Shown here in pieces: positions 20,897 to 37,116 of a DNA stretch of 56,252 nt. This DNA is from an uncultured Bacilli bacterium (GTDB lineage Bacteria > Bacillota_I > Bacilli_A > RF39 > UBA660), in assembly GCA_947625575.1 (NCBI GenBank), contig CANQOV010000004.1, positions 1 through 56,252 of the forward strand, read 5' to 3'. Numbering within the stretch: position 1 is the first letter of the stretch; the number at the start of each line of letters is the position of its first letter. The notes beneath the pieces are model-generated. The model saw only the letters and a list, made by a program, of their open reading frames with translations. It had not been told where the DNA came from and did not search any database. The position numbers and the translations under genes are program-made.

Positions 20897-22978
20897 CTAT
20901 TTATTATCTTTAGAAATAAATCTAACATAACCCCTATTATTTTCTATAATATTTTTATCTTCACAGCTTACTATATTTTTATAATCTTCTAATATTCTAT
21001 TAAACATTACCCTTATTACACTTTGTCGCATATGATAATATTTTGAAAGCAAATTGTAAACAAAACTATTATCTTCAAAATTAAGTAGCAATAATAAAGC
21101 AAAAGACTCTTTAAAAGTAAAATAGTTCAATAATATTTCAAATGCTTTTGAATTAATTAAATTTAAAATTTTAATATACTCTTCTTTTTCTAAAACATCA
21201 CAATTAGTATCATTAGATAAATATTTTGTCAATTGTTCTAGGCTTTGCTCCTGTTGATTTATATCCAAACATTTTAAAAATCTACTCATTTTTGGCAAGA
21301 TAACATCATGAAATAAATTATTTTCGCTTTTAGTTATTACCTGTTCATCACTATCTCCATACATTTTATTAACTACTGCTATTTCATCTTTAGATAACAA
21401 TTTTAAAATTTTTGAAACTTGAGAAGTAGTATAACCATTAAAAATAGTATAGATAGTAAATCTTAATCTTGATTTTCTTATTGCTCTTACATGTTGTTTG
21501 GCTTCTATCGTTGATGTCCTTTCATCTTTAATTCTTTGAATTGTTTTTTTAGCTTCTGTTGGATTTTGCGTATAAATAACAAGATCATCAGCCAAACCAG
21601 AAACTATTATTTTATTTAATGCCGCTAACTCTATTGTTCTTACCCTTTCTCCAGTTATATTATATTTATTACCAATAACAGTTCTTGCTACTGGATTAGC
21701 TACTCCAAATCTTAACTTTAAAATAGTCCTTTCCCTTTCAGACAAACTACTATCATTAAATAATTTTTCTATTTCCGATTTTATAGATTCATTTACTACT
21801 AAATCATCAGGAGAATCATCATTACTGGCTATTAAATCCCCGAGTTCAGTACCTTCATCATCTAAGACGGTATCATTAAGACTAGATAAATCATAATTAA
21901 TAAGTTCCAAATTTTTAGCCATTTGCAAAGAAATTCCTAATCGATCTGTAACTTCAGACATCTTTGGAACTCTTTTATTGTTCATCTGAGCTTTCAATAC
22001 AATCTTTTTATATTTAAAAATTGCAAAATATGCATTATAAGGAAAAATAATACCGTTTCCCTTTCTACTAATTGCATCACTAATATAATGTTTTATCCAA
22101 GAAGTAGCATAAGTTAAAAATCTATATCCCTTGTCTGGATCAAATTTATCAATTGAAAATATAAGCCCCATATTCCCCTCTTGAACTAAATCAAGATAAT
22201 CCAAACCACGACCAACAAATTTTTTAGCAATTAAAGCAACAAATTTTAGATTTCTTTCAACCAACATATTCTTAGCACGTTTATCACCATCACTAGCCTT
22301 TCTTACCAATGCTTTTTCTTCTTCAATTGATAAGACTGGTATACCTTTAATTTCATTTAAATACATTGTTATGTCACTAGGCAATTCTTCTTTTTCATCA
22401 TAACTAATACCATTAAAATGCACATTTTGAACATTATGTAACATACAGTAACTATCAATTGCCATTGCCATTAAATCATTATCAAATATTTTCTTTTTTT
22501 CTAAATTTGTTTTTGTCTGATAAACTTTAAACACTACTTCAACAGCTCTATTAAAAAGAACATTTTCACGTAACAAATTCATTATCAAATCAATAGTAGG
22601 AACAAAATTACATTTTTCAAATAACTTAATTAATTTTGTAAAACAACTCATTACTTCATCATAGCTTGAAACATCAGTAAATTCCTGATTTATATAACTA
22701 TTCAATAAATCAACAACAGAGTCTTTTTCATTAATAAAAACACATACTTTTTTTATTAACTCTAACTCTATTTTCTCATTAATAAAACTTTCATAATTTT
22801 CATTACCTAAATAAGTGTTTTTAGAATCTTTTATCTTCTCTATCACTAATCGATAAAATTCTTCATCACTTAAATTCAAACATTTAAAAGCATCTTTTAA
22901 TTTGTTAATATTTGGTAATATCAAATTATATATTTGTTCTACACTCAATTGTTTTACTTTCTCTAAATCTAAGTCCAT
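20897..22978 (-). CDS. RpoD-like sigma-70 factor with long N- and C-terminal extensions
   Basis: region 1.2 'MYLNEIKGIPVLSIEEE', region 2 'RGLDYLDLVQEGNMGL..SIDKFDPDKGYRFLTYATSWI', region 4 'LSERERTILKLRFG...ITGERVRTIE'; AGGAGG before ATG 22978. Confidence 0.85.
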   Translation of the reverse strand: MDLDLEKVKQLSVEQIYNLILPNINKLKDAFKCLNLSDEEFYRLVIEKIKDSKNTYLGNENYESFINEKIELELIKKVCVFINEKDSVVDLLNSYINQEFTDVSSYDEVMSCFTKLIKLFEKCNFVPTIDLIMNLLRENVLFNRAVEVVFKVYQTKTNLEKKKIFDNDLMAMAIDSYCMLHNVQNVHFNGISYDEKEELPSDITMYLNEIKGIPVLSIEEEKALVRKASDGDKRAKNMLVERNLKFVALIAKKFVGRGLDYLDLVQEGNMGLIFSIDKFDPDKGYRFLTYATSWIKHYISDAISRKGNGIIFPYNAYFAIFKYKKIVLKAQMNNKRVPKMSEVTDRLGISLQMAKNLELINYDLSSLNDTVLDDEGTELGDLIASNDDSPDDLVVNESIKSEIEKLFNDSSLSERERTILKLRFGVANPVARTVIGNKYNITGERVRTIELAALNKIIVSGLADDLVIYTQNPTEAKKTIQRIKDERTSTIEAKQHVRAIRKSRLRFTIYTIFNGYTTSQVSKILKLLSKDEIAVVNKMYGDSDEQVITKSENNLFHDVILPKMSRFLKCLDINQQEQSLEQLTKYLSNDTNCDVLEKEEYIKILNLINSKAFEILLNYFTFKESFALLLLLNFEDNSFVYNLLSKYYHMRQSVIRVMFNRILEDYKNIVSCEDKNIIENNRGYVRFISKDNK

Positions 22979-23117
22979 TTTGCACCTCCTAAAATACACA
23001 CATATTTTAACACTTTTTTGCAAATTTGTAAACTTTTTTCATAAATAAAAAGATTAAGTTCTAACTCTTAATCTCTATATTATATCCAAAAAATATTGAT
23101 AAATTCCAACATCAAAT

Positions 23118-24092
23118 TTAATTTTGCATTAAAATATGTTGACCTTTAACTAATTCATAATTAATTAAATCTTTACTATCTAAATTTTCTTTATGCATAT
23201 CAACACAAGTTATTTGACTATTTTCATAAGTTGTATAGTAATAAAGTCCTTTATCCAAATTACAGCAAGAGCTATAAATAGTTATCTCATATTGACCATT
23301 ACCCATATGAACACAACCTCTTTGTTGTTCTACAGATCCCAAAATATGGAAAAATTGACTGATACTTTCTAATTCATCATCTTTTGATAAAGAATTCATT
23401 TTAGTAAAAGTTGCTTTTACAAAACGTGATGCTGATGACAAATCTCCAGGTAATCCTAAAGCTCCCATACCACGACTATAAACATCAAAATTTAATTTTT
23501 TTGAAAAATTATTACTTGGTTGTTCAATAGATAATCCCATATAATTATTTAAATTAAACATCTGCATATCAAAGCAAGGATTATTAGTAAGCACTCCAAC
23601 AGGGTTATCGTATACTTTTAAACCCTCTAAAACGCACTCCACTACTACAGAACTATTTTTGTCTGCAATTATCCAGTGCAAAGGAGAAACAGGCAATTGT
23701 TCACTAAAATTTATATCAACTAAATTTATTTTATTTAATAATTCTTTAGCTTCTGATAAAGTAGCACACTGTGATAAAATCCATGGAATAAACTCAAAAG
23801 GAGCCACATTATCTTTACCATCAACTTCATCTTTATATTTGGCATTTTTTGGAAAATTTAATCCAGCCATACCTAAACCCTTTTCATTAATAGCATCATA
23901 ATAAAGTGGATAATTATCTGAAACATAAGCCATGCCAATAATAGCATAATGTTTATTAATATTACCAACTTTTCTAAATTTAAAATCATAATTTCTAGGT
24001 GTTATTGTAACTGTTTCCTTATATGAATATTCTAAATCTAAATTTCTTCCAAAATAATGATCTTTTGTATTATAAGTTATAGCTGTACACAT
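23118..24092 (-). CDS. bsh: choloylglycine hydrolase (bile salt hydrolase)
   Basis: N-terminal nucleophile 'MCTA', 'GRNLD', 'NEKGL', 'LTNNP', 'GLPGD.SS.SRF'. Confidence 0.92.
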   Translation of the reverse strand: MCTAITYNTKDHYFGRNLDLEYSYKETVTITPRNYDFKFRKVGNINKHYAIIGMAYVSDNYPLYYDAINEKGLGMAGLNFPKNAKYKDEVDGKDNVAPFEFIPWILSQCATLSEAKELLNKINLVDINFSEQLPVSPLHWIIADKNSSVVVECVLEGLKVYDNPVGVLTNNPCFDMQMFNLNNYMGLSIEQPSNNFSKKLNFDVYSRGMGALGLPGDLSSASRFVKATFTKMNSLSKDDELESISQFFHILGSVEQQRGCVHMGNGQYEITIYSSCCNLDKGLYYYTTYENSQITCVDMHKENLDSKDLINYELVKGQHILMQN

Positions 24093-24745: not shown

Positions 24746-25996
24746 TCAGTACTCTAAACTATTTGGGTCTAGTAAAAAATCAAATATATTCATCATTATT
24801 ATTCCATCTTCAGTTCTAGTCCTTTTTATGTAGTCTTTTACAATTATAACTTTTTTAAAAGAATCATTAATTTTTAAAAGTGGTCGTTCTTCCTGTTTAA
24901 TTTTTTCTTCATTTGGCATACTAAATGCTGATTGAATATATATTTTATTATTTCCTTTATTTGCAACAAAATCCACTTCTAATTGCTTATAAATATATTC
25001 ATTTTCATTTTTGTCTTTTAATTCTATAAGACCAACATCAACATTGTATCCTCTTCTCTTTAATTCTAGATATATAACATTTTCCATAATATGTGTTTCT
25101 TCATGTTGCCTAAAGTTAATAAAAGAATTGCGGAGTCCTAAATCACTAAAATAGTATTTGTTAGGAGTACTTATATATTTTTTCCCCTTTACATCATATC
25201 TTTCAGCCTTTTCTATTATAAATGCTTCTTCTAAATATTTTAAATACAAGCTTATTGTTTTGTGATCAATATTTATTCCTGCGGTTGATTGAAAGGTATC
25301 CGAAAGTTTCTTGGGATTAGTAAGTGAGCCAATATTGGAAGAAATTATCTCAATCAAATTAACTAATTTACTATCATTTTTTACATTATTTCTTTCAATG
25401 ACATCATTAACATAAACATTTTTTTGTTGTTCTTTTAAATAAGCCTTTTTTCTTTCATCACTATTCATTGAAACAACTAGTGGTAACCCACCATAAGTTA
25501 TATATTCAACCCAACCATCAAGTTTATCTCCATCATATACCGACATAAATTCAGAATATGATAATGGATATATTCTAATTTCTTCGCCTCTTCCTCTAAA
25601 TTCAGTAATTATATCACTAGATAAAAACTTTGAATTACTACCTGTTACATAAATATCAATATTTGGTATTCGCAAAAGACCATTTAAAACTCCTTCAAAA
25701 TTTTCACATTTTTGAACTTCATCTAGTATTACATAATATATTTTTTCATCTACTATTTTTTCTTTAATAAATTTACTTAAATTTTGTGGAATTAATAAAT
25801 ATTCATTATCAGAATCATCTAATGCTATTGATATAATATGATCTTTTGACACATTATTATTTAACAAATATTCATAAAATAATGTATTAAGCAAATAAGA
25901 TTTACCACATCTACGAATTCCAGTAACAACTTTGATAAGACCATCATTTTGTGCTTCAATAAGTCTATTTAAATAATAATCACGATTTATTCTCAT
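24746..25996 (-). CDS. AAA ATPase (AAA_14 + DUF4143-type)
   Basis: 'TGIRRCGKS', 'ILDEVQ', 'VTGSNS', 'KYYFSDLGLRN', 'EVDFV'; start at ATG 25996 after GAGAGG. Confidence 0.88.
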   Translation of the reverse strand: MRINRDYYLNRLIEAQNDGLIKVVTGIRRCGKSYLLNTLFYEYLLNNNVSKDHIISIALDDSDNEYLLIPQNLSKFIKEKIVDEKIYYVILDEVQKCENFEGVLNGLLRIPNIDIYVTGSNSKFLSSDIITEFRGRGEEIRIYPLSYSEFMSVYDGDKLDGWVEYITYGGLPLVVSMNSDERKKAYLKEQQKNVYVNDVIERNNVKNDSKLVNLIEIISSNIGSLTNPKKLSDTFQSTAGINIDHKTISLYLKYLEEAFIIEKAERYDVKGKKYISTPNKYYFSDLGLRNSFINFRQHEETHIMENVIYLELKRRGYNVDVGLIELKDKNENEYIYKQLEVDFVANKGNNKIYIQSAFSMPNEEKIKQEERPLLKINDSFKKVIIVKDYIKRTRTEDGIIMMNIFDFLLDPNSLEY

Positions 25997-26052
25997 ATTG
26001 ATTTTCCTCTCAGTTATCATTATACTCCTATTTAATAAAATTATCATTTAAT

Positions 26053-26092
26053 TATTCCCAAAAAAACTCCAAAGTTGACTTTTTTGGGAATA
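26053..26092. promoter_or_regulatory. 13-bp perfect inverted repeat upstream of the ATPase
   Basis: TATTCCCAAAAAA-N14-TTTTTTGGGAATA. Confidence 0.5.
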
Positions 26093-26113
26093 CAAATAAT
26101 TATCATATATAAC

Positions 26114-26222
26114 AAAAATACCTAATCTCTTAAAAGAAATTAGGTAGATTGACTCAGGGCTTCATAAGTTTCCTGAATACTAATCGTTATAAACTGTATC
26201 ATATATTTATATATAAAGTCAA
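26114..26222 (-). ncRNA. candidate hairpin small RNA, copy 1 (with promoter and terminator)
   Basis: TTGACT-18-TACAGT with TGn; 39-nt stem-loop 26147-26185; terminator 26119-26146. Confidence 0.55.
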
Positions 26223-26289
26223 TACATCTTTTATATTAAATTTATATAATATTTTTGAAATTTTTGCTGCTTCTATTATTTATCCAGTC

Positions 26290-26350
26290 TTTCTTTAATT
26301 GCGGCTTGTACCACAATCTCATTCGGGATGAATAAGATTAAATTTTATAA
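26290..26350 (-). repeat. att-like copy 3 of ppdK 3' core plus conserved arm
   Basis: TTTCTTTAATTGCGGCTTGT (26290-26309) + ACCACAATCTCATTCGGGATGAATAAGATTAAATT. Confidence 0.85.
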
Positions 26351-26408
26351 ATTTACTAATGACTAATGCTTTCAATACTATTAATTATACCACTTTCAAT
26401 TCAAAATT

Positions 26409-26490
26409 AAAACCTAGTTATTAAAACTAGGCTCTCAATGGCCTAGAGCTTCAAAAGTTTTCTAGGCACCACTCGATATATAATATACCA
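26409..26490 (-). ncRNA. candidate hairpin small RNA, copy 2
   Basis: TGnTATATT; 39-nt stem-loop 26436-26474 covarying with copy 1; terminator 26413-26431. Confidence 0.55.
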
Positions 26491-26526
26491 TGTTTATATA
26501 AATTATATTTTTGATTTTATAATATC

Positions 26527-26553
26527 AAAAAAGACTAAGTTTCCTTAGTCTTT
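26527..26553 (-). terminator. intrinsic terminator after the alternative ppdK end (KQGE*)
   Basis: AAAGACTAAG-GAAA-CTTAGTCTTTTTT on minus strand. Confidence 0.75.
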
Positions 26554-26576
26554 AATCATATATTATTCTCCTTGTT

Positions 26577-26637
26577 TTTCTTTAATTGCGGCTTGTACCA
26601 CAAACTCATTTGGGATGAATAAGATTAAATTTATAAA
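26577..26637 (-). repeat. att-like copy 2 of ppdK 3' core plus conserved arm
   Basis: TTTCTTTAATTGCGGCTTGT (26577-26596) + ACCACAAACTCATTTGGGATGAATAAGATTAAATT. Confidence 0.85.
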
Positions 26638-26667
26638 ATATTATTTTTAAAATGACTTATTTGCAAT

Positions 26668-27135
26668 TTACTTCATTTCTTCTAACATTTTTTCTTTTAG
26701 TTTGTCTATATCCGTGAAAAATAAATTTGTGCCTCTCTTTTTTAATCCTATCATATTTTTAAATAAACTTTTAATTTCATTTTGCAAATCTGTTGAAACT
26801 CTTAGTGGTACTCCATCAACAGTATGAACATGGTCTATATATTTTTCTAGTGTTGGAAAAGCATTTTGTAATAAAATAGCAGCATCTTCATCGGCAATTT
26901 TTCTAATAATTATAGTATTACAAAATCCATACTTCTCGACTTTTTTATCAATAATCTTTTGATATTTATCAACTTTAGAACTAATAGGAATAAACCATAA
27001 AATATTTTTATCTTTAATTGTAAAATAAGTAGGTCTCTTCTTTCCTTTTTCATGATTTTGCATTAAATTTTCATCATTAACGACATCAAAATATTCATCT
27101 TTGATGTGATATAAATAACCTGTTTTTATTTTCAT
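26668..27135 (-). CDS. type III toxin-antitoxin toxin, CptN-like endoribonuclease
   Basis: 'G.LYHIKDEYF...LMQN.E...RP.Y...LWFIPISSKVDKY...LLQNAFP'; preceded by tandem repeats and terminator. Confidence 0.85.
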   Translation of the reverse strand: MKIKTGYLYHIKDEYFDVVNDENLMQNHEKGKKRPTYFTIKDKNILWFIPISSKVDKYQKIIDKKVEKYGFCNTIIIRKIADEDAAILLQNAFPTLEKYIDHVHTVDGVPLRVSTDLQNEIKSLFKNMIGLKKRGTNLFFTDIDKLKEKMLEEMK

Positions 27136-27176
27136 TGTCATCAACTCCATAAAAAGTATACCACAAAGCAAAAGAA

Positions 27177-27364
27177 AACTCCACCTTACGATGAAGTTAT
27201 TCTACATTTTCAACCGGGATCACTTATTACTCGCTAGCCACCCGGAAGCGAGAAACATTGTCGACCGGGATTATTTATTACTCGCTAGCCACCCGGAAGC
27301 GAGAAACATTTTCACACTTTTTCAAGTGCAACATAAATATACTACATTTTTATGAAAATGTCAA
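27177..27364 (-). ncRNA. type III antitoxin RNA (CptI-like): promoter, 2.2 x 51-nt repeats, terminator
   Basis: TTGACA-17-TATATT; repeats 27204-27314 with H-type pseudoknot (CTCGCT/AGCGAG, CCGGG/CCCGG); terminator 27177-27198. Confidence 0.88.
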
Positions 27365-27397
27365 ATAGTATACATTAATAGTATATTCATTTTCAAT

Positions 27398-30028
27398 TTA
27401 TTTATCCATTTTTTCTTTAATTGCGGCTTGTGCAGCAGCAAGTCTAGCTATTGGTACTCTAAATGGACTACAAGAAACATAAGTAAGTCCTATATTATGA
27501 CAGAACTCTATAGTTGATGGATCTCCACCATGTTCTCCACAAATACCAAGTTTAATATCAGGTCTTACACTCTTACCCTTACTAATTGCAATCTTCATAA
27601 GTTCTCCAACACCCTCTTGATCAACTTTAGCAAATGGATCAGATTCAAAAATACCTTTTGTATAATAATCACTTAAGAACTTTGTAGCGTCATCTCTTGA
27701 GAATCCATAAGTCATCTGTGTTAAATCATTTGTACCAAATGAGAAGAATTCTGCTTGAGTAGCAATCTTATCAGCAGTTAAAGCTGCTCTTGGAATTTCA
27801 ATCATTGTACCAACATGATATTCTAATTTAGCATTAGAATTTTTAATTATTTCATCAGCAGTTTCACAAACTATATTTTTAACATATTTTAATTCATTAA
27901 CATCTCCAACTAACGGAATCATTATTTCAGGAACAACATTTAATCCCTCTTTATTTACATTAAGTGCAGCTTCAATTACTGCTCTTGTTTGCATTTTAGC
28001 TATCTCTGGATAAGTAATTGATAAACGGCAGCCTCTATGACCCATCATTGGATTAAATTCTTTTAATGATTCAACTCTTGCTTTCAATGCTTCAAAACTC
28101 ATACCTAGACTTTCTGCAAGTGGTTTAATCTCTTCATCAGTATGAGGTAAGAACTCATGTAAAGGTGGATCCAAAAATCTAATTGTAACCCCATAACCTT
28201 TCATAGCTCTAAATAGACCCTCAAAGTCACTTCTTTGATATGGTAAAATCTTTTCAAGAGCCTCTTCTCTTTTTTCAACACTGTCAGCAGTAATCATACG
28301 TCTGAAATTGAAAATTCTATCTTCTTCAAAGAACATATGTTCTGTTCTACACAAACCAATACCTTGAGCTCCAAATTTACGTGCTTGCATTGCATCTTTT
28401 GGACTATCAGCATTTGTTCTAACCATTAATCTTCTATTCTTATCTGCCCAATCCATAAATACTTCAAAATCACCTGAAATACCTGGCTCAACAGTTTCTA
28501 TTTTTTCTCCATAAACATTACCTAAAGATCCATCTAAACTCATCCAGTCTCCCTCATGATATACTTTGCCATCTTTAGTAGTCACTGTTTTCTTTTCTTC
28601 ATCAATCTTTAATTCACCACAACCAGAAACGCAACAAGTACCCATACCACGTGCTACTACTGCAGCATGTGAAGTCATACCACCACGTACAGTTAAAATA
28701 CCATGAGCAAGATTCATACCTTCGATATCCTCTGGACTTGTTTCAAGTCTTACAAGAAGCATATCTTTTTCTCCCTTGCTACTAGCTTCCATAACATCTT
28801 TAGCAGTAAAATAAATCTTACCTGTAGCAGCTCCAGGAGAAGCAGCAAGCCCTTTAGCAACAACAGTAGCTTTCTTAAGAGCCTCTGGATCAAAATTTGG
28901 ATGTAACAACTGATCTAATTGTTTAGGCTCAACTTTAAGAAGAGCTTCTTCTATAGTAATCATACCTTCTTTTACTAAATCAACAGCAATCTTAATAGCA
29001 GCTTGTGCTGTTCTTTTACCATTTCTAGTTTGAAGCATGAATAAATGTCCATCCTCAATTGTAAATTCCATATCTTGCATATCTTTATAATGATTCTCTA
29101 AAATATCACAAATCTTAACAAATTCATTATAACAATCTGGCATAACTTCTTTTAAAGTATCAATAGATTGTGGTGTACGAATACCCGCAACAACATCTTC
29201 TCCTTGGGCGTTCATCAAATATTCCCCAAACAACTTCTTCTCTCCAGTTGCAGGATTTCTTGTAAATGCAACACCAGTTCCAGAAGTATTACCTCTATTA
29301 CCATATACCATTTCTTGAACATTAACAGCAGTACCCCAACTAGATGGTATATCATTTAACCTACGATATGTAATAGCTCTTTCATTATTCCAAGATCTAA
29401 ATACTGCTTTAATAGCTTCCATAAGTTGTACTTTAGCATCTTGTGGGAAATCACACCCAGCATGATTTTTATATTCTTTCTTATAAATTTCTACAACTTC
29501 TTTTAAATCTTCACTAGTAAGTTCTGTATCATATGTTACATGTTTTGCTTCCTTTATTTCATCAAACTTTCTTTCAAAAGATGACTTTGGAAATCCCATA
29601 ACAACATCAGCAAACATTTGAATAAATCTTCTATAACTATCATATACAAATCTAGGATTTTGTGTAGTTTCACTAAAACCTACAGCAACTTCATCATTTA
29701 ATCCCAAATTTAATACAGTATCCATCATACCAGGCATTGATGCTCTAGCACCACTTCTTACTGATACTAATAAAGGATTAGTTTTATCTCCCATTTTTTT
29801 ACCAGTAACTTTTTCAAGTTCATCAAGTTTTTCCATGATTTGACTTACTATTTCTTCATTAATAGTCATATCATCTTCATAATACTTTGTACAAGCTTCA
29901 GTTGTAATAGTAAACCCTCTAGGAACAGGAAGTCCAAGTCCAGCCATCTCAGCTAAATTAGCACCCTTACCTCCTAAAAGATTACGCATATCCTTATTGC
30001 CTTCTTTAAAGTTATAAACGTATTTCAT
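27398..30028 (-). CDS. ppdK: pyruvate, phosphate dikinase
   Basis: 'LLGGKGANLAEM', 'VSVRSGA..SMPGMMDT', 'GGMTSHAAVVARG', 'GICGEHGGDP'. Confidence 0.98.
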   Translation of the reverse strand: MKYVYNFKEGNKDMRNLLGGKGANLAEMAGLGLPVPRGFTITTEACTKYYEDDMTINEEIVSQIMEKLDELEKVTGKKMGDKTNPLLVSVRSGARASMPGMMDTVLNLGLNDEVAVGFSETTQNPRFVYDSYRRFIQMFADVVMGFPKSSFERKFDEIKEAKHVTYDTELTSEDLKEVVEIYKKEYKNHAGCDFPQDAKVQLMEAIKAVFRSWNNERAITYRRLNDIPSSWGTAVNVQEMVYGNRGNTSGTGVAFTRNPATGEKKLFGEYLMNAQGEDVVAGIRTPQSIDTLKEVMPDCYNEFVKICDILENHYKDMQDMEFTIEDGHLFMLQTRNGKRTAQAAIKIAVDLVKEGMITIEEALLKVEPKQLDQLLHPNFDPEALKKATVVAKGLAASPGAATGKIYFTAKDVMEASSKGEKDMLLVRLETSPEDIEGMNLAHGILTVRGGMTSHAAVVARGMGTCCVSGCGELKIDEEKKTVTTKDGKVYHEGDWMSLDGSLGNVYGEKIETVEPGISGDFEVFMDWADKNRRLMVRTNADSPKDAMQARKFGAQGIGLCRTEHMFFEEDRIFNFRRMITADSVEKREEALEKILPYQRSDFEGLFRAMKGYGVTIRFLDPPLHEFLPHTDEEIKPLAESLGMSFEALKARVESLKEFNPMMGHRGCRLSITYPEIAKMQTRAVIEAALNVNKEGLNVVPEIMIPLVGDVNELKYVKNIVCETADEIIKNSNAKLEYHVGTMIEIPRAALTADKIATQAEFFSFGTNDLTQMTYGFSRDDATKFLSDYYTKGIFESDPFAKVDQEGVGELMKIAISKGKSVRPDIKLGICGEHGGDPSTIEFCHNIGLTYVSCSPFRVPIARLAAAQAAIKEKMDK

Positions 30029-30639: not shown

Positions 30640-32436
30640 CTATAGACCTCCACCAGATCCAAAAGACTCTAACTCTTCTTGAGTTAAAATAACACTCATC
30701 CTCATCCTTCTATTACCACAGACAAACAAAGCATCTCCTTGAGAATAACGTTTAATACTTTCTTTCTCATTATCATTTAAATCAATTAATAAAGCCAAAT
30801 CTTCAACAGCTTGTTTCTTAAGACCCATAACTAAGTAATAAGCAGCATTGTCAAATATTGCTTTACCTTGAGTAATAACACTAGAAGGAGTAAAATCACT
30901 AGGTTGTTGAGTAATAATAATATTACCAGTATTATACTTACGACTTCTTCTTTGCATCTGTGCTAAGAAATCAGCACCTAACACATTACCACCAGAAAGT
31001 AAAACATGTGCTTCATCTACCATCATAACAGTATTAATAGAAGAATCTAAGCATAAACTCCATGCAAACTTCAAAATATTGAAAAACAAAGCATTTCTAA
31101 CATTAACATCTGCGTTCATAAGTTCTCTTATATTAAATGCTATAAAATTACTATTTGGATGAATAGTAGTATGACCATTAAAATAAAATCTAAGCTCATT
31201 AGTAAATGGTCTAATCTTAAGTTCAAGACGTTCCATAACATCTCTTTCATGAGTCATATCAGTCATCGAAATAAGTTTACTTTTAATAGTAGTATAAACA
31301 TCATCAAAAGTTGGATAATTTTCAGATTGATAAACAGAAAAATCTGTATTAAAATCAATACCAAATCTTCGATAAGTTTCTTGTACCATCTCTATAAAAA
31401 CATTTAATACATCTTCTTCAATCGAAGGATCATAATACTTCATAAAAGCCTTTAAAAATTGTAAAGTCTTCGTAAGAACAGTATAACCAAGTCCCTCTTT
31501 AACCTCATCTTCATCAGCATCAATTAAAACTTCCAAAGGATTAATAAGTCCAAACTGTCCACCTTTTCCAAGATCAATAGCATCTCCTCCAAATAATTCT
31601 ACCATCTCACGCAACTCATTTTCAGGATCTATTGCTACAACTTGATAAGAATTTCTTAAAGAAGATCTAACCAATAACTTAGCAGCAGTACTTTTACCAG
31701 ATCCAGAAGTTCCTAAAATAATCATATTAGCATTATTACGATTATCTCTACTGTGATCTCCTTTTACTTGATAGAAGAATTGATTAAATAACACAACACC
31801 ACCAGAAAAATCTGTTCCAAGTAAAGTAGATGGTCCTGGATCTTTTAAACTATCAAATATAAATGGATACATCCCCGCCATCGTAGGAGAAGGTATAATT
31901 GTTCCAATTCTATCTTCAATATCTTGTTTAGGGAAAAAAGGTAAAATAGATTTTAAAACTTTTTCCATTTCAAATCTTAAAGGAACTGCTCTTAATCCCA
32001 TCGCTGTTAAATAATTCTTAACTTGAATCTTTCTTACTTCCAAATCTTCTTTACTATCAGCACTAAGTACTAAATGCATTTGAAAATCAAAAATCTTAGA
32101 ATTTGCTGCCGCTAATTGCTGAACAAACTCTTCCAAAGTATCATAATCTTGTCTTAATCTTTCTTGAGTAGTTCTATCTTTTTCTTCAGAATATCTATTT
32201 CTTAAACTAGCAAGCTCTTTATTCAACATCTTAGATAAAGTAGAAAAAGGTACAGGAATATGTTTAACAACAATCTTAACCCCAGGCATATTAGTAATAT
32301 TAGATAAATAACCTACCCCAATACTTCTTGGATAAGATACACAAGTTAAAATAGTCATATACTTTCCACTAACAACTATATCACTAGCTCCAAACTCAAG
32401 TCCTTTTGGAGCAATTGCACTCTTAAATAAACTCAT
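30640..32436 (-). CDS. VirB4-like T4SS/conjugation ATPase
   Basis: Walker A 'ILGTSGSGKS', 'AIDPENE', Walker B 'MMVDEAH', 'RRSRKYN', 'ITQQ'. Confidence 0.88.
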   Translation of the reverse strand: MSLFKSAIAPKGLEFGASDIVVSGKYMTILTCVSYPRSIGVGYLSNITNMPGVKIVVKHIPVPFSTLSKMLNKELASLRNRYSEEKDRTTQERLRQDYDTLEEFVQQLAAANSKIFDFQMHLVLSADSKEDLEVRKIQVKNYLTAMGLRAVPLRFEMEKVLKSILPFFPKQDIEDRIGTIIPSPTMAGMYPFIFDSLKDPGPSTLLGTDFSGGVVLFNQFFYQVKGDHSRDNRNNANMIILGTSGSGKSTAAKLLVRSSLRNSYQVVAIDPENELREMVELFGGDAIDLGKGGQFGLINPLEVLIDADEDEVKEGLGYTVLTKTLQFLKAFMKYYDPSIEEDVLNVFIEMVQETYRRFGIDFNTDFSVYQSENYPTFDDVYTTIKSKLISMTDMTHERDVMERLELKIRPFTNELRFYFNGHTTIHPNSNFIAFNIRELMNADVNVRNALFFNILKFAWSLCLDSSINTVMMVDEAHVLLSGGNVLGADFLAQMQRRSRKYNTGNIIITQQPSDFTPSSVITQGKAIFDNAAYYLVMGLKKQAVEDLALLIDLNDNEKESIKRYSQGDALFVCGNRRMRMSVILTQEELESFGSGGGL

Positions 32437-33116
32437 AAAGGCATCACCGTCCCAGATTCATACTTCGTTCCACCATTTAAGAAATTATCAATAATAGTTC
32501 GTAAATCCTCATTAGAAGTTTGACTAGCAACAAGACCTGCACCAGCCAAACCATTAATCATATCCCTTACTCTTTTTTGTAAAACATCCATTTTCTTATC
32601 TTTAAATAACAAATAATACTCCGTATCTACTACATTATTATTCTTAAAATAATCTCCCTTATCCATATCTTGAGATATAATCTTTCTTAAAGTCTGATCA
32701 GCAGTCTTATTATATAAAAGTTGTAACTCTGCTTGATACATAGCTATATCAACAGGTCTATCTGCAACAACTAACCAAAACTCATAATTAATAGTATTAT
32801 AAAAATTCATAAGACCAATAAGAGTATTATCCATACTAGATCCATCTAAAATAAAAATATTTTTAGGTTGAATCTTAACTCCAGTAACCATATCTCCACT
32901 ATCATTATAAATAATTCCATTAGAAATAGTCTTTACATTAATCCAGTTCTCTGTATACTTTGGATCATTTTTAACACTCTTAGGCATAATCTTCTTTGCA
33001 ATACCACTACTAGATTTACCACTTTGAACTTTATTAACAGAATTAGCATTAGCTACCTTTGCACCACTAACCATTGTCTGTTTAACTTGTCCATCATTAT
33101 TCATCTGATTGTTCAT
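32433..33116 (-). CDS. T4SS-associated protein (PrgI C-terminal / VirB4 N-domain-like)
   Basis: 'WINVKTISNGII', 'VKIQPKNIF', 'EYYLLF'; overlaps both neighbours. Confidence 0.55.
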   Translation of the reverse strand: MNNQMNNDGQVKQTMVSGAKVANANSVNKVQSGKSSSGIAKKIMPKSVKNDPKYTENWINVKTISNGIIYNDSGDMVTGVKIQPKNIFILDGSSMDNTLIGLMNFYNTINYEFWLVVADRPVDIAMYQAELQLLYNKTADQTLRKIISQDMDKGDYFKNNNVVDTEYYLLFKDKKMDVLQKRVRDMINGLAGAGLVASQTSNEDLRTIIDNFLNGGTKYESGTVMPL

Positions 33117-33417
33117 ATTGATAACACCAACCTCTCCAAATATATCTTCTTCTATTCTTAAAAAAATATCTATATACCTCTAATAACAAGATCCTTGAAT
33201 TATGATAATTAGGTATTGGAAACACTAAAAATGCTCCCACAATAGCAGGTAATAAAGTAACAACGACACCCCATAACTCAGTAACAGGCAAAATAGCAAG
33301 TAAAATAAACGTTGCCCCAACAGCTACACAAATAATAGCCAAATCAATTGGTAACAAAAAACCAAAAATTAAACTTTGCTTCTTACTGTTAGCAGGTACC
33401 AAATATGTTTGATTCAT
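33097..33417 (-). CDS. PrgI/VirB3-like membrane protein
   Basis: 'YLVPAN.K...LIFGF...DL', two TMs, 'RRRYIWRG'; between pilin and ATPase. Confidence 0.65.
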   Translation of the reverse strand: MNQTYLVPANSKKQSLIFGFLLPIDLAIICVAVGATFILLAILPVTELWGVVVTLLPAIVGAFLVFPIPNYHNSRILLLEVYRYFFKNRRRYIWRGWCYQYEQSDE

Positions 33418-33444
33418 AAACAACCTCCTCTATTCTTATAAAAA

Positions 33445-33750
33445 CTAACCAATACCACATGTACCATTACTAAAGCCAATAAGTCTTAAAAAGACATTAA
33501 CTAACAATGGAATAAAAAATATAAGTAACCCAATAACGATTCTTTTAATTGCTCTTGTTTGTGCAGCTTTCATATCATCTTCTTTTCCAGCAACAACAGC
33601 TTTAACAAAATCAACCACTACCAAAATAAGAACTAAAACTGGTACAACAATCATAATAATATTACAAGCTTCCTGTAAAGTTGCAGCCAAACCACCTGCT
33701 TCCAAATCTTGACAAGTCAACATAAATAAAGATAAAAAATTAAAATTCAT
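33445..33750 (-). CDS. VirB2/TrbC-like pilin
   Basis: two hydrophobic helices flanking 'DFVKAVVAGKEDDMKAAQ...KRI'; Cys near both termini. Confidence 0.7.
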   Translation of the reverse strand: MNFNFLSLFMLTCQDLEAGGLAATLQEACNIIMIVVPVLVLILVVVDFVKAVVAGKEDDMKAAQTRAIKRIVIGLLIFFIPLLVNVFLRLIGFSNGTCGIG

Positions 33751-33841
33751 AACACACCATCCTACACTATTTACATAACAATTATAACAATTTTAAAAAT
33801 AAATAACAATACATAAATAAAAAAGTTTCAAAGAAACTTTT

Positions 33842-36800
33842 TTATTTTCCACTAGAAGAATTTCTTGCATCATTTGCAGCCTGATTTTTAATAACATCTG
33901 TGTTATTTTTAATTGCATTTATTTCAACATCAATATTACGGCGTTTTTGCTCTGCAGCTCCAACAGCATCAAACGCAGTTGAAACATTAACAATTTTTTC
34001 ATTTCCAATTCCAGTTAAATCTCTAACAACTTTATTTTCTCTATGCAAAGATTGCATATTTTGAACACCAGCAGATAAAATTCCGGCCGTCTTATCACTA
34101 TATTCTATATTTTTAACATAATCTGCAACATCAAAACCACTTGCACCATGATTAAGTAAAACATTAGAGACACGTTCCTGAGCATATGCATTAAAACTTT
34201 TGCCTTCATGATTTCTTGCATATGCATCAGCATCAAGTGATCCATCAGCCTTACGATATTTGTAAGCATCCACTAAAAGATCACCATACTCTTTTTGAGC
34301 AGCTTTTTTTTGATTAGTCTTAAATATAGGATTACCACTTTTATCTCTTACATTTAATATATCTTGTGTAACAGCATCAGCTTCAAGTGCTTGATCCATA
34401 GCTGATTTTGTCTCGCCACCTTTTTTCAATTCATTACTTTGAAGTTCAAGTGCATGTATATTATGTGAAGCTCTTGTTGCCTTATCAAGTCCTACTCTTC
34501 CAAGTGTAGCCGCAGTAAGTTGTTGTTTAAATCCAACACCTTGATTATAAGCGTTTCTTCTTGTTCTATTAATAGCTTGAGTACGTTTGCTACCAGCAAG
34601 TAACTTTCCTTTTGCACCACCACCAGCACCACTCAATGCCGAAACTGCAACATTACCAAGTCCATATCCGAAAGCACCTAAACCAACGCCTAAACTACCA
34701 ATAACGCTTCTACCATTTCGTCTAGCATTTGCAAAAGCAGCACCAGCAGTGAAAGTATTTTGACCTAAGCCCATGCCGCTAGCTATAGCAACACCAGCAC
34801 CAATTCCTAATCCTGCTTTAACCATATTATAACTATCTTTAAATGTACTAGATCCTTCTACACCAAACAATCTACTAATTAAATTAGGAACAGTTTTTAT
34901 AAATACAAGCTCACCCATCATAACAAATATAATTCCAATACCAAGATCATCAAAATTAGCAGTATTAGTAATAGCAGATAAGAAAGCAGCACCAGCCTCA
35001 ATTGCAATCAACTTAAAAAATAAATCAAGATAAGCACTTGCATACATTTTTACCCACGAATTGAAATTTTTATCCGAAGGATTAATATAACTAATAATTG
35101 GAATTGGTGCCATAATTTGTAAAATCCATATTTTCAAATTACGAACTACAACTTCAACACAAATTGTAGCAAGAACAGTAACAGCTAAAATACAAAAAAC
35201 AATAGCAAACAGCCAATCCAAATCAACCTGTTTTTTCTTATATAGTGTCGCAAATTCTTCAATAGTATCAGAAGTATTTAAATAAGCTTTTCTAACACTT
35301 ACAGCAGTTGCATTATCTTTATTTCTAACTGAAGTAAAACCACTCATCAAACTTCTAGCAAAATCAATACCACAATAATTTCTACCGCAATCACTAATGA
35401 CATCAGAATCTATATATCCTTCGCCAACTAACTCTTTAACATCATTTTTTACATTTTCATCATCTGGACAAACATTTTGATACATATCAAGCACATATTG
35501 AGCTTTAGCTTTAGGAAATGTGGCTTGATCATAATTAGTAAAACCAGAATATCCAGAAGTATTTTCTCCTGTATTTAACCAACCTTCGGAATCAAATAGA
35601 ACTTCCCCGTCTTTATTATCATTAACAGTACAATTAAAACCACTTCCGGGATGACTACAAGTTAAACCTATAATAGAATTAGGGCAAACATGTCTATCCA
35701 AATTGGAAATAGCATTAGAATCAAACCAATTATTAGACCTTCTAATAACTCCGTTAGGTATATCTAAATTACTGCCACTAGGAGAAGTTATTTCAAAATC
35801 CCAGTAAACCAAACCCGAAAATTTTGGATTACTCATCTTAGTTTTTGTAAAAACAATATGTACACGATTTGAATTAGACATAGCTAAAGTATAATTACTA
35901 TTACAATATTGCCTATCACCATCTAAATTTGCTAAATTAGAATTAGTATCTCTATAAATATAATCACACTCAAATTTTTCCTCTACTTCTAAATGTTCTC
36001 CAGTATTTTCATCAACCGCATCAGAATTAAATATTACATTTTCGCAATCCTTTTTATCACCATTTTTGCATAAATAAAATTTAGAATCAAAATTAAACTC
36101 TGACATACCACTAACAATGTTTGATTCTGTATCCATTAAACACTTTGTATCATTACAAGCATCAGGAATTCCTACACTAAAACAAGCTTCTTTTCCACCA
36201 CAAGCACTAGGATTATCTTGCCACTGATACTTTCCGTCACTTTCAACAGTCATAAACTCTTTAAATCTATTAATAAAATTCGTTAAACTGCAACCATCAT
36301 AAGCCTCAGCAAAAACTTTAAACTGTGGACCCATATATTGATTATTATATGCATTATCTACCCATTGAGAGCCTGTACCATTACCATAATAATCTTCAAA
36401 TGTGCCAAACTTACCTGCAACATTCCAAGCAAGCCAAGCATATGTTTCTGCACCTTTATAAGAATCTGTACAAGATATACCTATATTAGATTCATTAACA
36501 TCAGCAGAAACATTAACTAATAAATTGTTATCATCTAAATTTAAAGTTTGATTTTTTTCAAAAATTTTATCTATAATACCACTGTCCAAAATACTATCTT
36601 CAAATCTTTTTAAAAATGGGAATATAAAACTTTGTAAAGTTAAAAGAAGTGCAAACGAAACAACTATTCTTACTAAGAGTTTACCTGCTCCAACTTGTTT
36701 ATCACTAACCTTTTCAGGGTCAATCAAATAATTTAACATTGCAACAAGAACTCTAAATAGAACAAATATTCCAACAACAACATAAATACTTGTTGACACT

Positions 36801-36937
36801 TGCATAACTAATTGATTATCGTAACTAAATAATTCATTTAATTTAAGCATCATATCATAAGTACCAGCAAGCATCCCTCTAAACATACCACCAATACTAG
36901 TACCTAAAAATTCCTTTATATTAAACAATAAAAACAT
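33842..36937 (-). CDS. giant VirB6/TrbL-like membrane protein with Cys-rich extracellular insert (paralogue 1)
   Basis: N-terminal TMs, 'VVVRNLKIWILQIMAPI..ISY.NP....F..W.KMY..AY.DLF' core, Gly/Ala-rich tail; start ATG 36937 (MFLLF, as paralogue 3). Confidence 0.7.
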   Translation of the reverse strand: MFLLFNIKEFLGTSIGGMFRGMLAGTYDMMLKLNELFSYDNQLVMQVSTSIYVVVGIFVLFRVLVAMLNYLIDPEKVSDKQVGAGKLLVRIVVSFALLLTLQSFIFPFLKRFEDSILDSGIIDKIFEKNQTLNLDDNNLLVNVSADVNESNIGISCTDSYKGAETYAWLAWNVAGKFGTFEDYYGNGTGSQWVDNAYNNQYMGPQFKVFAEAYDGCSLTNFINRFKEFMTVESDGKYQWQDNPSACGGKEACFSVGIPDACNDTKCLMDTESNIVSGMSEFNFDSKFYLCKNGDKKDCENVIFNSDAVDENTGEHLEVEEKFECDYIYRDTNSNLANLDGDRQYCNSNYTLAMSNSNRVHIVFTKTKMSNPKFSGLVYWDFEITSPSGSNLDIPNGVIRRSNNWFDSNAISNLDRHVCPNSIIGLTCSHPGSGFNCTVNDNKDGEVLFDSEGWLNTGENTSGYSGFTNYDQATFPKAKAQYVLDMYQNVCPDDENVKNDVKELVGEGYIDSDVISDCGRNYCGIDFARSLMSGFTSVRNKDNATAVSVRKAYLNTSDTIEEFATLYKKKQVDLDWLFAIVFCILAVTVLATICVEVVVRNLKIWILQIMAPIPIISYINPSDKNFNSWVKMYASAYLDLFFKLIAIEAGAAFLSAITNTANFDDLGIGIIFVMMGELVFIKTVPNLISRLFGVEGSSTFKDSYNMVKAGLGIGAGVAIASGMGLGQNTFTAGAAFANARRNGRSVIGSLGVGLGAFGYGLGNVAVSALSGAGGGAKGKLLAGSKRTQAINRTRRNAYNQGVGFKQQLTAATLGRVGLDKATRASHNIHALELQSNELKKGGETKSAMDQALEADAVTQDILNVRDKSGNPIFKTNQKKAAQKEYGDLLVDAYKYRKADGSLDADAYARNHEGKSFNAYAQERVSNVLLNHGASGFDVADYVKNIEYSDKTAGILSAGVQNMQSLHRENKVVRDLTGIGNEKIVNVSTAFDAVGAAEQKRRNIDVEINAIKNNTDVIKNQAANDARNSSSGK

Positions 36938-36959
36938 AACACACACTCCCACTATTATC

Positions 36960-36988
36960 AGTATAGCCCCCCCCCCGACCTTTGTCAA
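36960..36988 (-). promoter_or_regulatory. sigma-A-type promoter with G10 tract in 17-bp spacer
   Basis: TTGACA-AAGGTC-G10-C-TATACT. Confidence 0.8.
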
Positions 36989-37116
36989 CAATTAAACAAA
37001 AGAAATCTGAAAGAAATCTCCCAGACTTTTAAATTTAATAACAAATAACAACATATAAATTCAACATAAAAAGAGCAAGCAGATTTTTTGAAATTTCTTG
37101 CTCCTGAACAATTTTA

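Follow-up and report, generated by a model that had tools for sequence, protein, structure and literature searches.

The two hairpins and their locus

The stretch of DNA analysed here, called the window throughout, comprises 56,252 nucleotides (nt) of contig CANQOV010000004.1 from an uncultured Bacilli bacterium and carries two 39-nt hairpins, A and B, whose relatives, genomic association and origin are the subject of this report. The hairpin locus lies entirely on the minus strand. Read 5′ to 3′ on that strand, it consists of a pyruvate phosphate dikinase (PPDK) gene, a CptIN type III toxin-antitoxin locus, the first copy of a 79-nt repeat followed by a terminator, unit B, the second copy of the repeat, unit A and a gene for an AAA_14/DUF4143 ATPase (Table 1). 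Each unit consists of a promoter-like site, a hairpin and an intrinsic terminator. A consensus scan placed four terminators in the 1.2 kilobases (kb) of the hairpin region, where 0.1 would be expected.

A first-pass annotation, made from the letters of this DNA alone, had described two 39-nt hairpins that align without gaps around a kept apex, with compensatory stem changes, a terminator after each, an extended -10 before each and no associated open reading frame (ORF). Its coordinates and letters for the hairpins are correct: 25 of the 39 columns in the gap-free alignment are identical, the apex AAACTTnTGAAGC among them, and five pairs (3-37, 8-34, 10-32, 11-31 and 14-28) differ on both sides between A and B. 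Folding each copy separately gives the same interrupted structure, with an outer helix of 3-4 base pairs (bp), a G-C pair between two bulges and a 7-bp helix, above which an internal loop of AAA opposite C leads to an apical helix of 3 bp (CUU/AAG) closed by a loop of 3 nt. The terminators were recovered by the consensus scan at 26146-26119 and 26435-26409. As for the extended -10, A has a predicted TG-extended site and B the motif TGgTATATT, but no clear -35 was seen in the sequence upstream of hairpin B. A coding reading was rejected, as each of the three forward frames is interrupted by stops in hairpin B and the small ORFs over hairpin A (20 amino acids (aa), and 49 aa on the opposite strand) are without any support.

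The exact apex occurs twice in the window, and with its paired flanks it is confined to these two copies in the 1.15-megabase genome. Relative to shuffled sequences, the folding energy of the bare hairpins is ordinary (z-scores of -1.7 and -1.6); hairpin and terminator together reach -4.3 and -3.8, and none of 200 shuffles folds equally well. Since the energy of a single hairpin is unremarkable, two copies alone are thin evidence for a functional RNA, and it is the relatives that decide.

Table 1. Features of the hairpin locus and its neighbours, in window coordinates.
Feature	Position	Strand	Remarks
PPDK gene	27398-30028	minus	Pfam match; 3′ end anchors the variable island
20-nt PPDK 3′-end core, three copies	27410-27429, 26575-26594, 26288-26307	minus	
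cptI promoter	27336-27364	minus	
cptI-like antitoxin repeats	27204-27314	minus	2.2 copies of 51 nt; neighbour, outside the hairpin system
cptI terminator	27177-27198	minus	
CptN-family type III toxin gene	26668-27135	minus	listed ORF starts at 27171; likely start is the ATG at 27135
79-nt repeat copy 1	26561-26639	minus	holds a pseudo-3′ end of PPDK
Terminator directly behind the copy 1 pseudo-3′ end	26530-26553	minus	consensus scan
Extended -10 of hairpin B	26482-26490	minus	TGgTATATT, 7 nt upstream of the hairpin's first G; predicted from sequence
Hairpin B	26436-26474	minus	39 nt; 'downstream type', closing pair A-U (AGA...TCT); apex AAACUUUUGAAGC; covariance model 56 bits
Intrinsic terminator directly 3′ of hairpin B	26409-26435	minus	consensus scan and folding
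79-nt repeat copy 2	26274-26352	minus	86% identical to copy 1, 287 nt away; second PPDK pseudo-3′ end
Promoter-like site of hairpin A	26193-26222	minus	TTGACT, 18-nt spacer, TG-TACAGT; TG-extended; consensus scan
Hairpin A	26147-26185	minus	39 nt; 'upstream type', closing pair G-C (AGG...CCT); apex AAACUUAUGAAGC; covariance model 55.8 bits
Intrinsic terminator directly 3′ of hairpin A	26119-26146	minus	consensus scan and folding
AAA_14/DUF4143 ATPase gene	24746-26047	minus	directly downstream of hairpin A; Pfam; PADLOC PDLC04787, E = 1.2e-120

A structured RNA family beside abiF genes and in phages

Building a covariance model and scanning gut Bacilli genomes with it, as the first-pass annotation had proposed, was productive. 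Seeded from the two window copies only, the model gave 57 matches, which fall in 34 of the 151 genomes scanned from the same family. Within a sample drawn from the whole class, it matched three of 13 family genomes, the window's own not counted, and none of 136 genomes from 25 other families. The covariation alignment held 45 matches with 35 distinct sequences, in which 97.3% of the pair cells hold standard pairs and both-sided changes occur at nine of 14 pairs; none of 500 shuffles reached as high a covariation score, and shifting the 3′ partner by one column lowers pairing to about 55%. The apex GAAACUUNNGAAGC and a G-U at positions 6-7 are nearly invariant across the family. G.U cells outnumber A.C cells by 34 to 4 in this first alignment and by 66 to 8 in a larger set; this excess means that only one strand folds well, which argues for an RNA rather than a double-stranded palindrome. 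A strict 20-base pattern recovered at least 128 stretches in public genomes, where the carriers among the matches listed are uncultured Bacilli or Tenericutes bins, 'Mycoplasma sp. CAG:472', 'Clostridium sp. CAG:417' and 'Coprobacillus sp. CAG:605', all of which we take to belong to the small-genome gut order RF39. The earlier proposal of a structured, covarying noncoding RNA (ncRNA) family is thus borne out: the two hairpins are genuine members of an uncatalogued structured RNA family.

The relatives also place this family beside a toxin gene. Thirteen hairpin pairs in the family genomes are spaced 951-975 nt apart, and 12 of them enclose a match to PF07751 (Abi_2), forming intact hairpin-abiF-hairpin cassettes; the remaining pair (G068:C44; G, C and L numbers denote genomes, contigs and loci of our set) encloses only a 72-aa fragment of a decayed abiF. 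The ORFs of the twelve fetched cassettes are 288-298 aa long, and all five that were scanned matched Pfam Abi_2 with expectation values (E) of 1e-41 to 1e-44. Among the public-genome matches listed, 82 of 120 unique hairpins abut an AbiF-like ORF, 42 lying directly before and 40 directly after it. The AbiF link suggested in the first-pass annotation therefore holds for the relatives. The cassette proteins constitute one subfamily, with 44-91% mutual identity and an RNxxAH motif throughout; they are 30-32% identical to the other Abi_2 protein of the window's genome, and a cassette AbiF matches PbAbiF (Prevotellaceae AbiF, PDB 8VZ6) over its full length (E = 5e-14).

The layout was compared in 13 cassettes, 12 with abiF and one (G025:C21) with another ORF, which conforms loosely. 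A -35 resembling TTGACA is present in most, followed by a TATAAT-like -10 that usually has an upstream TG, then 7 nt and hairpin 1. Behind hairpin 1 come a U-rich stretch of 13-23 nt with a ribosome-binding site, the ATG and abiF. After the stop codon, the 12 abiF cassettes have 7-29 nt with a TATAAT-like box before hairpin 2 (7-56 nt from stop to hairpin 2 across all 13), and a terminator was seen by eye behind hairpin 2 in most. Upstream copies mostly close with G-C (AGG...CCT), and downstream copies more often with A-U (AGA...TCT; five of the 12 abiF cassettes). The window units share these signals: the -10 of hairpin A lies 7 nt from the hairpin, the spacing of the relatives, and a TG-extended -10 at 7 nt, as for hairpin B, precedes hairpin 1 in 13 relatives' cassettes. 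The order promoter-RNA-terminator-toxin envisaged by the first-pass annotation was not found; one hairpin stands at the 5′ end of the abiF message and the second just past the stop codon.

Other arrangements were also observed. The ORF enclosed in G025:C21 (L058, 3891-5380) has 416 aa and matches no Pfam family, and the flank of the second hairpin there is of the promoter side, which would fit insertion of a gene between two units of promoter and hairpin. In G018:C3 (L047) the enclosed ORF has 169 aa and by eye resembles a helix-turn-helix regulator. Close tandem hairpins without a gene occur in G097:C51 (L069, 416-537) and G025:C15 (L059, 2465-2642), at 83 and 139 nt from start to start; the G097 tandem follows a transposase fragment, and abiF seems to be interrupted there.

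The hairpin is also found in viruses. Eighteen viral loci carry a copy supported by the model, of which 5 and 7 came from two strict patterns and 6 from a loose scan. The covariance model confirmed all 12 strict-pattern loci; the loose 14-base scan returned mostly chance matches, with six of 79 loci passing the model. Each viral record has the hairpin once, with the same apex and new compensatory stems (92.3% pairing, nine of 14 pairs changed on both sides). The strict-pattern loci (L078-L082 and L211-L217) lie in phage genomes of about 90-170 kb, mostly inside tRNA arrays and often 0-5 nt from a tRNA end: ten of these 12 hairpins have a tRNA gene on their own strand no more than 170 nt away, and seven are within 5 nt of one. 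Of the five records with a reported completeness, three are genomes of 114-121 kb that are 97-100% complete. The viral hairpins have phage exonuclease and small-terminase genes as neighbours, and a test of five viral records for Abi_2 genes was negative. The G+C content, 27-33% in 11 of the 12 strict-pattern loci, is compatible with low-G+C hosts and says nothing more specific. Being set among tRNAs, the hairpin would be released by tRNA-processing enzymes.

Taken by itself, the layout of the cassettes could be read more simply, with the hairpins as generic ends of the abiF transcript, a stabiliser or attenuator at the 5′ side and a structure at the 3′ side, that have no specific protein partner and of which the window copies are functionless leftovers. 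Hairpin 1 does lie at the predicted +1 before a U-rich stretch that might be a leaky terminator, hairpin 2 adjoins a terminator, and the folding energy of a single hairpin is ordinary. We nevertheless judge this explanation improbable, for the 13-nt apex is almost unchanged while the stems vary, and a mere stabiliser need not keep its loop sequence across bacteria and phages. The same RNA, moreover, stands alone with its own promoter and terminator, and the phage copies are single, in tRNA arrays, with no abiF in the five records tested.

Comparison with known RNA antitoxins

The closest parallels to the hairpin family are the abiF RNA motif (Rfam RF03085), RCd22 and AbiFr. RCd22 from Clostridioides difficile phi027 comprises two abiF-motif hairpins upstream of abiF and binds and neutralises AbiF in cis and in trans; mutations that break the stem abolish neutralisation, and compensatory ones do not (PMC12373285). 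A review describes an AbiF dimer that binds two ncRNAs and an AbiF that processes its ncRNA (PMC12737573), and in the AbiFr structure (PDB 8VZ6) the AbiF dimer holds two RNAs. Both sources describe AbiF as the ancestor of Cas13 (PMC12737573, PMC12373285). Like these RNAs, our family forms a hairpin roughly 37-39 nt long whose internal loop is asymmetric and whose apical helix has 3 bp; it too is encoded beside an Abi_2/AbiF HEPN gene, in two copies per locus and with a sigma-70-type promoter. Of the features of the AbiF-associated class, a compensated, conserved hairpin with conserved unpaired nucleotides is present, and a position directly beside abiF is seen in the family, but not for the two window copies.

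The family is nonetheless not the known motif, for which the AbiF-like RNA of the first-pass annotation might have been taken. The RF03085 model (gathering score 37 bits) had no match at E<=10 in window positions 25900-26900, in three cassette loci or in the whole genomes of the window's own organism and of G087, G145, G163 and G036. As a positive control, the same model found the phiC2 locus with 37.6 bits, in which the covariance model of the window hairpin in turn had no match. An Rfam scan of the whole window at gathering thresholds returned one tRNA only, and a permissive scan of 25900-26900 gave chance-level candidates, the best being emrB-Lactobacillus at E = 1.5 on the 79-nt repeat. 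The arrangement is different as well, since the copies of our family flank abiF, whereas RCd22-type copies stand in tandem upstream of it, and since the cassettes have no separate terminator between hairpin 1 and abiF; the cassette proteins, too, are only 28-34% identical to phiC2 AbiF. Given the RF03085 mismatch and the different arrangement, we file the family as a distinct AbiF-associated RNA and not as a member of RF03085.

The type III loci ToxIN, CptIN and TenpIN resemble the cassettes in that an RNA antitoxin is encoded next to an endoribonuclease toxin, and in that loss of the toxin is tolerated when the RNA is retained. Their own antitoxins, however, are tandem direct repeats of 36-51 nt that lie upstream and are cut by a ToxN-fold toxin, whereas our family consists of single hairpins on either side of a HEPN toxin. 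The tandem-repeat organisation of ToxI and CptI is seen in the neighbouring cptI/cptN and not in the hairpins, and the type III label of the first-pass annotation, if understood as a repeat of the ToxI/CptI kind, does not apply to them. A repeated hairpin on either side of an intervening stretch also recalls the repeat-spacer-repeat units of Cas13 CRISPR loci. In the cassettes, however, the intervening stretch is the abiF gene itself, and there is no array, no spacer and no evidence of guiding.

A precedent for the phage copies comes from type III systems, in that phage PhiTE reportedly carries pseudo-ToxI, a look-alike of its host's RNA antitoxin. The viral records are similar in carrying a single hairpin with the same apex, with no Abi_2 gene in the five tested. 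Unlike pseudo-ToxI, they are natural, widespread copies that sit within tRNA arrays, and their anti-defence role is putative. Together, the tRNA-array setting and the pseudo-ToxI precedent suggest that the phage hairpin may be an antitoxin mimic directed against AbiF.

Orphan units, neighbouring defence genes and interpretation

The window copies themselves have no abiF beside them. No AbiF-like sequence was found between 25501 and 27500 (best E = 0.2), and the only Abi_2 gene of the genome lies on another contig (G000:C16, about 20975-21919; L071, 1408-2352), between rpsI and a protease-like gene. It encodes 314 aa with the motif RNLCAH and is 32% identical to a cassette AbiF; neither the covariance model nor a reading of its flanks revealed a hairpin there, and it has no separate RNA. 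An Abi_2 match is present in 150 of the 151 family genomes; such a core-like distribution is unusual in a family of abortive-infection toxins. Because the hairpins occur in only 34 of these genomes, the core gene is an unlikely partner for them. The hairpins of the window are therefore orphans, as the first-pass annotation had it, with no cognate abiF in the locus or in the genome assembly (94% complete, 75 contigs). Its further statement that toxins are absent is right for the cognate AbiF and wrong for the locus at large, as a complete, unrelated CptIN type III locus lies immediately upstream.

The flanks of the units carry traces of how they may have lost the gene. The 45 nt upstream of unit B match the promoter side of hairpin 1 in the G146 cassette at 35 positions and the hairpin 2 side at 28, and the 45 nt downstream match the terminator behind hairpin 2 at 37 positions and the stretch behind hairpin 1 at 22. 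For unit A, the downstream 45 nt match the G036 cassette at 33 positions behind hairpin 2 and at 22 behind hairpin 1, and the terminator of hairpin A resembles that 3′ of hairpin 2 in the same cassette, also in BLAST matches. A promoter of the hairpin 1 type joined to a terminator of the hairpin 2 type fits recombination between the flanking hairpins with deletion of abiF, by which the units may have arisen. Similar solo hairpins follow PPDK in three genomes (G088, G135 and G028) and cptN in one (G034), and locus L089 is nearly the same as unit B.

The position behind PPDK also recurs. PPDK lies directly upstream of hairpins or abiF cassettes in seven genomes (G036, G087, G025, G088, G135, G028 and G097). 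In the window, both units fall within a 287-nt diverged direct repeat that includes PPDK pseudo-3′ ends. Each 79-nt element contains a 20-nt core identical to the 3′ end of PPDK, in the same frame and with the stop at the same distance, so that we regard the elements as pseudo-3′ ends of that gene; their first 45 nt or so correspond to the stretch that follows cptN in G146 and G034. The two pseudo-3′ ends separate small defence modules, and the same pattern is seen in G146, where the order is PPDK, hairpin-abiF-hairpin, pseudo-3′ end and CptIN. A weak hint of exchange at this site comes from a single metagenome contig that joins position 26098 to 27410, the end of a core, with 36 nt on one side, and so skips a 1.3-kb block. 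These observations point to the PPDK 3′ end as a recombination hotspot at which small defence modules from different lineages would be stacked.

Alternatively, the hairpins might act as DNA, as ends of a small mobile cassette or as single-strand recombination sites that move abiF and other cargo and leave solo copies as excision scars. Hairpins on both sides of a cargo that is twice not abiF, cassettes in different genomic contexts, the frequency of solo copies, the assembly of the window region from repeated PPDK 3′ ends and the metagenome contig just described would all fit. The excess of G.U over A.C cells (34 to 4), however, means that only one strand folds well. Nor are the hairpins the outer ends of the cassettes, since a conserved promoter lies outside hairpin 1 and a terminator outside hairpin 2. 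No recombinase or HUH ORF was seen next to the cassettes on inspection of the ORF lists, and the phage copies are single and lie between tRNA genes. We therefore consider a role as DNA sites very unlikely.

The neighbouring CptIN locus is complete and canonical, with a promoter, 2.2 copies of the 51-nt cptI repeat, a terminator and cptN. CptN matches NCBIfam NF047359 (E = 1.6e-48; 164 bits against a cut-off of 90) and the CptN structure PDB 4RMO (E = 1.3e-22). Assembled contigs from three RNA-library runs, which were available together with one DNA run, cover cptI and the 5′ part of cptN; DNA carry-over is possible in these data, and CptIN may be expressed. Its proximity invites the idea that the hairpin works in trans, as a small RNA whose partner is not AbiF, and is simply carried along in defence islands; it might, for example, act as decoy or sensor of another nuclease such as CptN. 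CptIN does adjoin hairpins in the window and in G034, G146 and G006, and solo hairpins and phage copies exist without abiF. The window CptN, however, has a canonical promoter, repeats and terminator of its own, and the hairpin shows by eye no likeness to the 51-nt cptI unit. A CptN-like gene was found within 1.5 kb of the hairpin in only three of 80 public loci, against the 82 of 120 hairpins that touch an AbiF-like ORF among the matches listed. A link between hairpin and CptN was accordingly rejected, and a non-AbiF partner in general has in our view only a slight chance of being correct; CptIN, which has its own antitoxin, seems to be unrelated to the hairpins.

We consider it fairly probable that the window units are orphan genes for an RNA antitoxin of the AbiF clade, left after loss of abiF. 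In complete cassettes, a sigma-70-type promoter would start transcription at the first base of hairpin 1, which would be followed by the U-rich stretch with its ribosome-binding site and by abiF; hairpin 2, with its own -10-like box after the stop codon, would be closed by the terminator. By analogy with RCd22 and AbiFr, AbiF would hold the conserved single-stranded apex and bulges, with its RNase kept off. The hairpin would in this way act as a type III-like RNA antitoxin, and the two copies of a cassette might serve one AbiF dimer. The hairpins, as direct repeats, would then have recombined so that the toxin was deleted and the antitoxin kept, presumably the only loss that a cell survives. 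Two such solo units from different lineages would have been stacked with CptIN behind PPDK by repeated recombination at copies of the PPDK 3′ end, and the orphans could blunt an incoming abiF cassette.

Several observations weigh against this explanation. Among the public-genome matches listed, 38 of the 120 unique hairpins abut no AbiF-like ORF, although for at least six of them an abiF-like start or the edge of the locus comes next, and two hairpin pairs (G025:C21 and G018:C3) enclose other ORFs. Because the two window copies were its only seed, the model scores window-like sequences higher. In consensus sequence our family is unrelated to RF03085, and its internal loop has the large side 5′, as against 3′ in RF03085; with no RF03085 match in addition, the parallel is an analogy by context and not RNA homology, and binding and neutralisation of AbiF by the hairpins would follow from that analogy. 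Transcription of the window hairpins is predicted from promoter-like and terminator-like sites. The contigs from the three RNA-library runs lie on 26938-27388 (cptI and cptN) and none on 26100-26500, a distribution that in itself weighs neither way. The upstream flank of unit A does not discriminate, with 28 of 45 positions matching the hairpin 1 side and 29 of 45 the hairpin 2 side. For the phage copies, only two of the 151 family genomes hold homologues of the exonuclease encoded next to the L078 hairpin, weak ones at 28-31% identity, which provide no link to a host.

A bolder extension, which we hold to be possible yet doubtful, is that the hairpin is a portable anti-AbiF RNA that serves bacteria, with two copies per abiF message, and phages, as a pseudo-antitoxin in tRNA arrays, the bacterial solo copies then acting as immunity against incoming abiF. 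With a hairpin at each end of the message, the AbiF dimer might load onto, and perhaps trim, the ends of its own mRNA, and the repeat-gene-repeat order could be a precursor of the repeat-spacer-repeat layout of Cas13. Phages would have captured the hairpin and would express it from their tRNA arrays, where tRNA-processing enzymes would release it and AbiF would be disarmed.

The orphan-antitoxin explanation, and the family on which it is based, matter for several reasons. Only one RNA motif, RF03085, is catalogued for AbiF, which was recently proposed as the ancestor of the RNA-guided Cas13 enzymes. With the hairpin family, a distinct clade of AbiF would have a second kind of RNA, apparently unrelated to the first and placed at both ends of the toxin gene, and binding studies could draw on dozens of natural sequence variants of this RNA. 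The phage tRNA-array copies would offer a directly testable case of natural RNA-based counter-defence, and the many solo copies would illustrate how a toxin is shed and its antidote kept. In practice, the covariance model can help to annotate small-genome gut Bacilli by flagging AbiF cassettes, and the scars that they leave, which otherwise go unannotated there.

The surroundings of the hairpins hold further genes of interest. The AAA_14/DUF4143 ATPase matches the PADLOC candidate defence family PDC-S01 (E = 1.2e-120), and the region around hairpin A looks like a small defence island. Upstream of PPDK, a run of conjugation-type genes on the minus strand (about 30640-46334) includes a TraG/VirB4-like ATPase, a type IV secretion pilin and three large TrbL-like proteins, which suggests an integrated conjugative element; one further long ORF lies in the same run. 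Also on the minus strand, an unusually long sigma-70 family protein of 708 aa is encoded at 20897-23023, and a choloylglycine (bile salt) hydrolase gene at 23118-24092 fits a gut organism.

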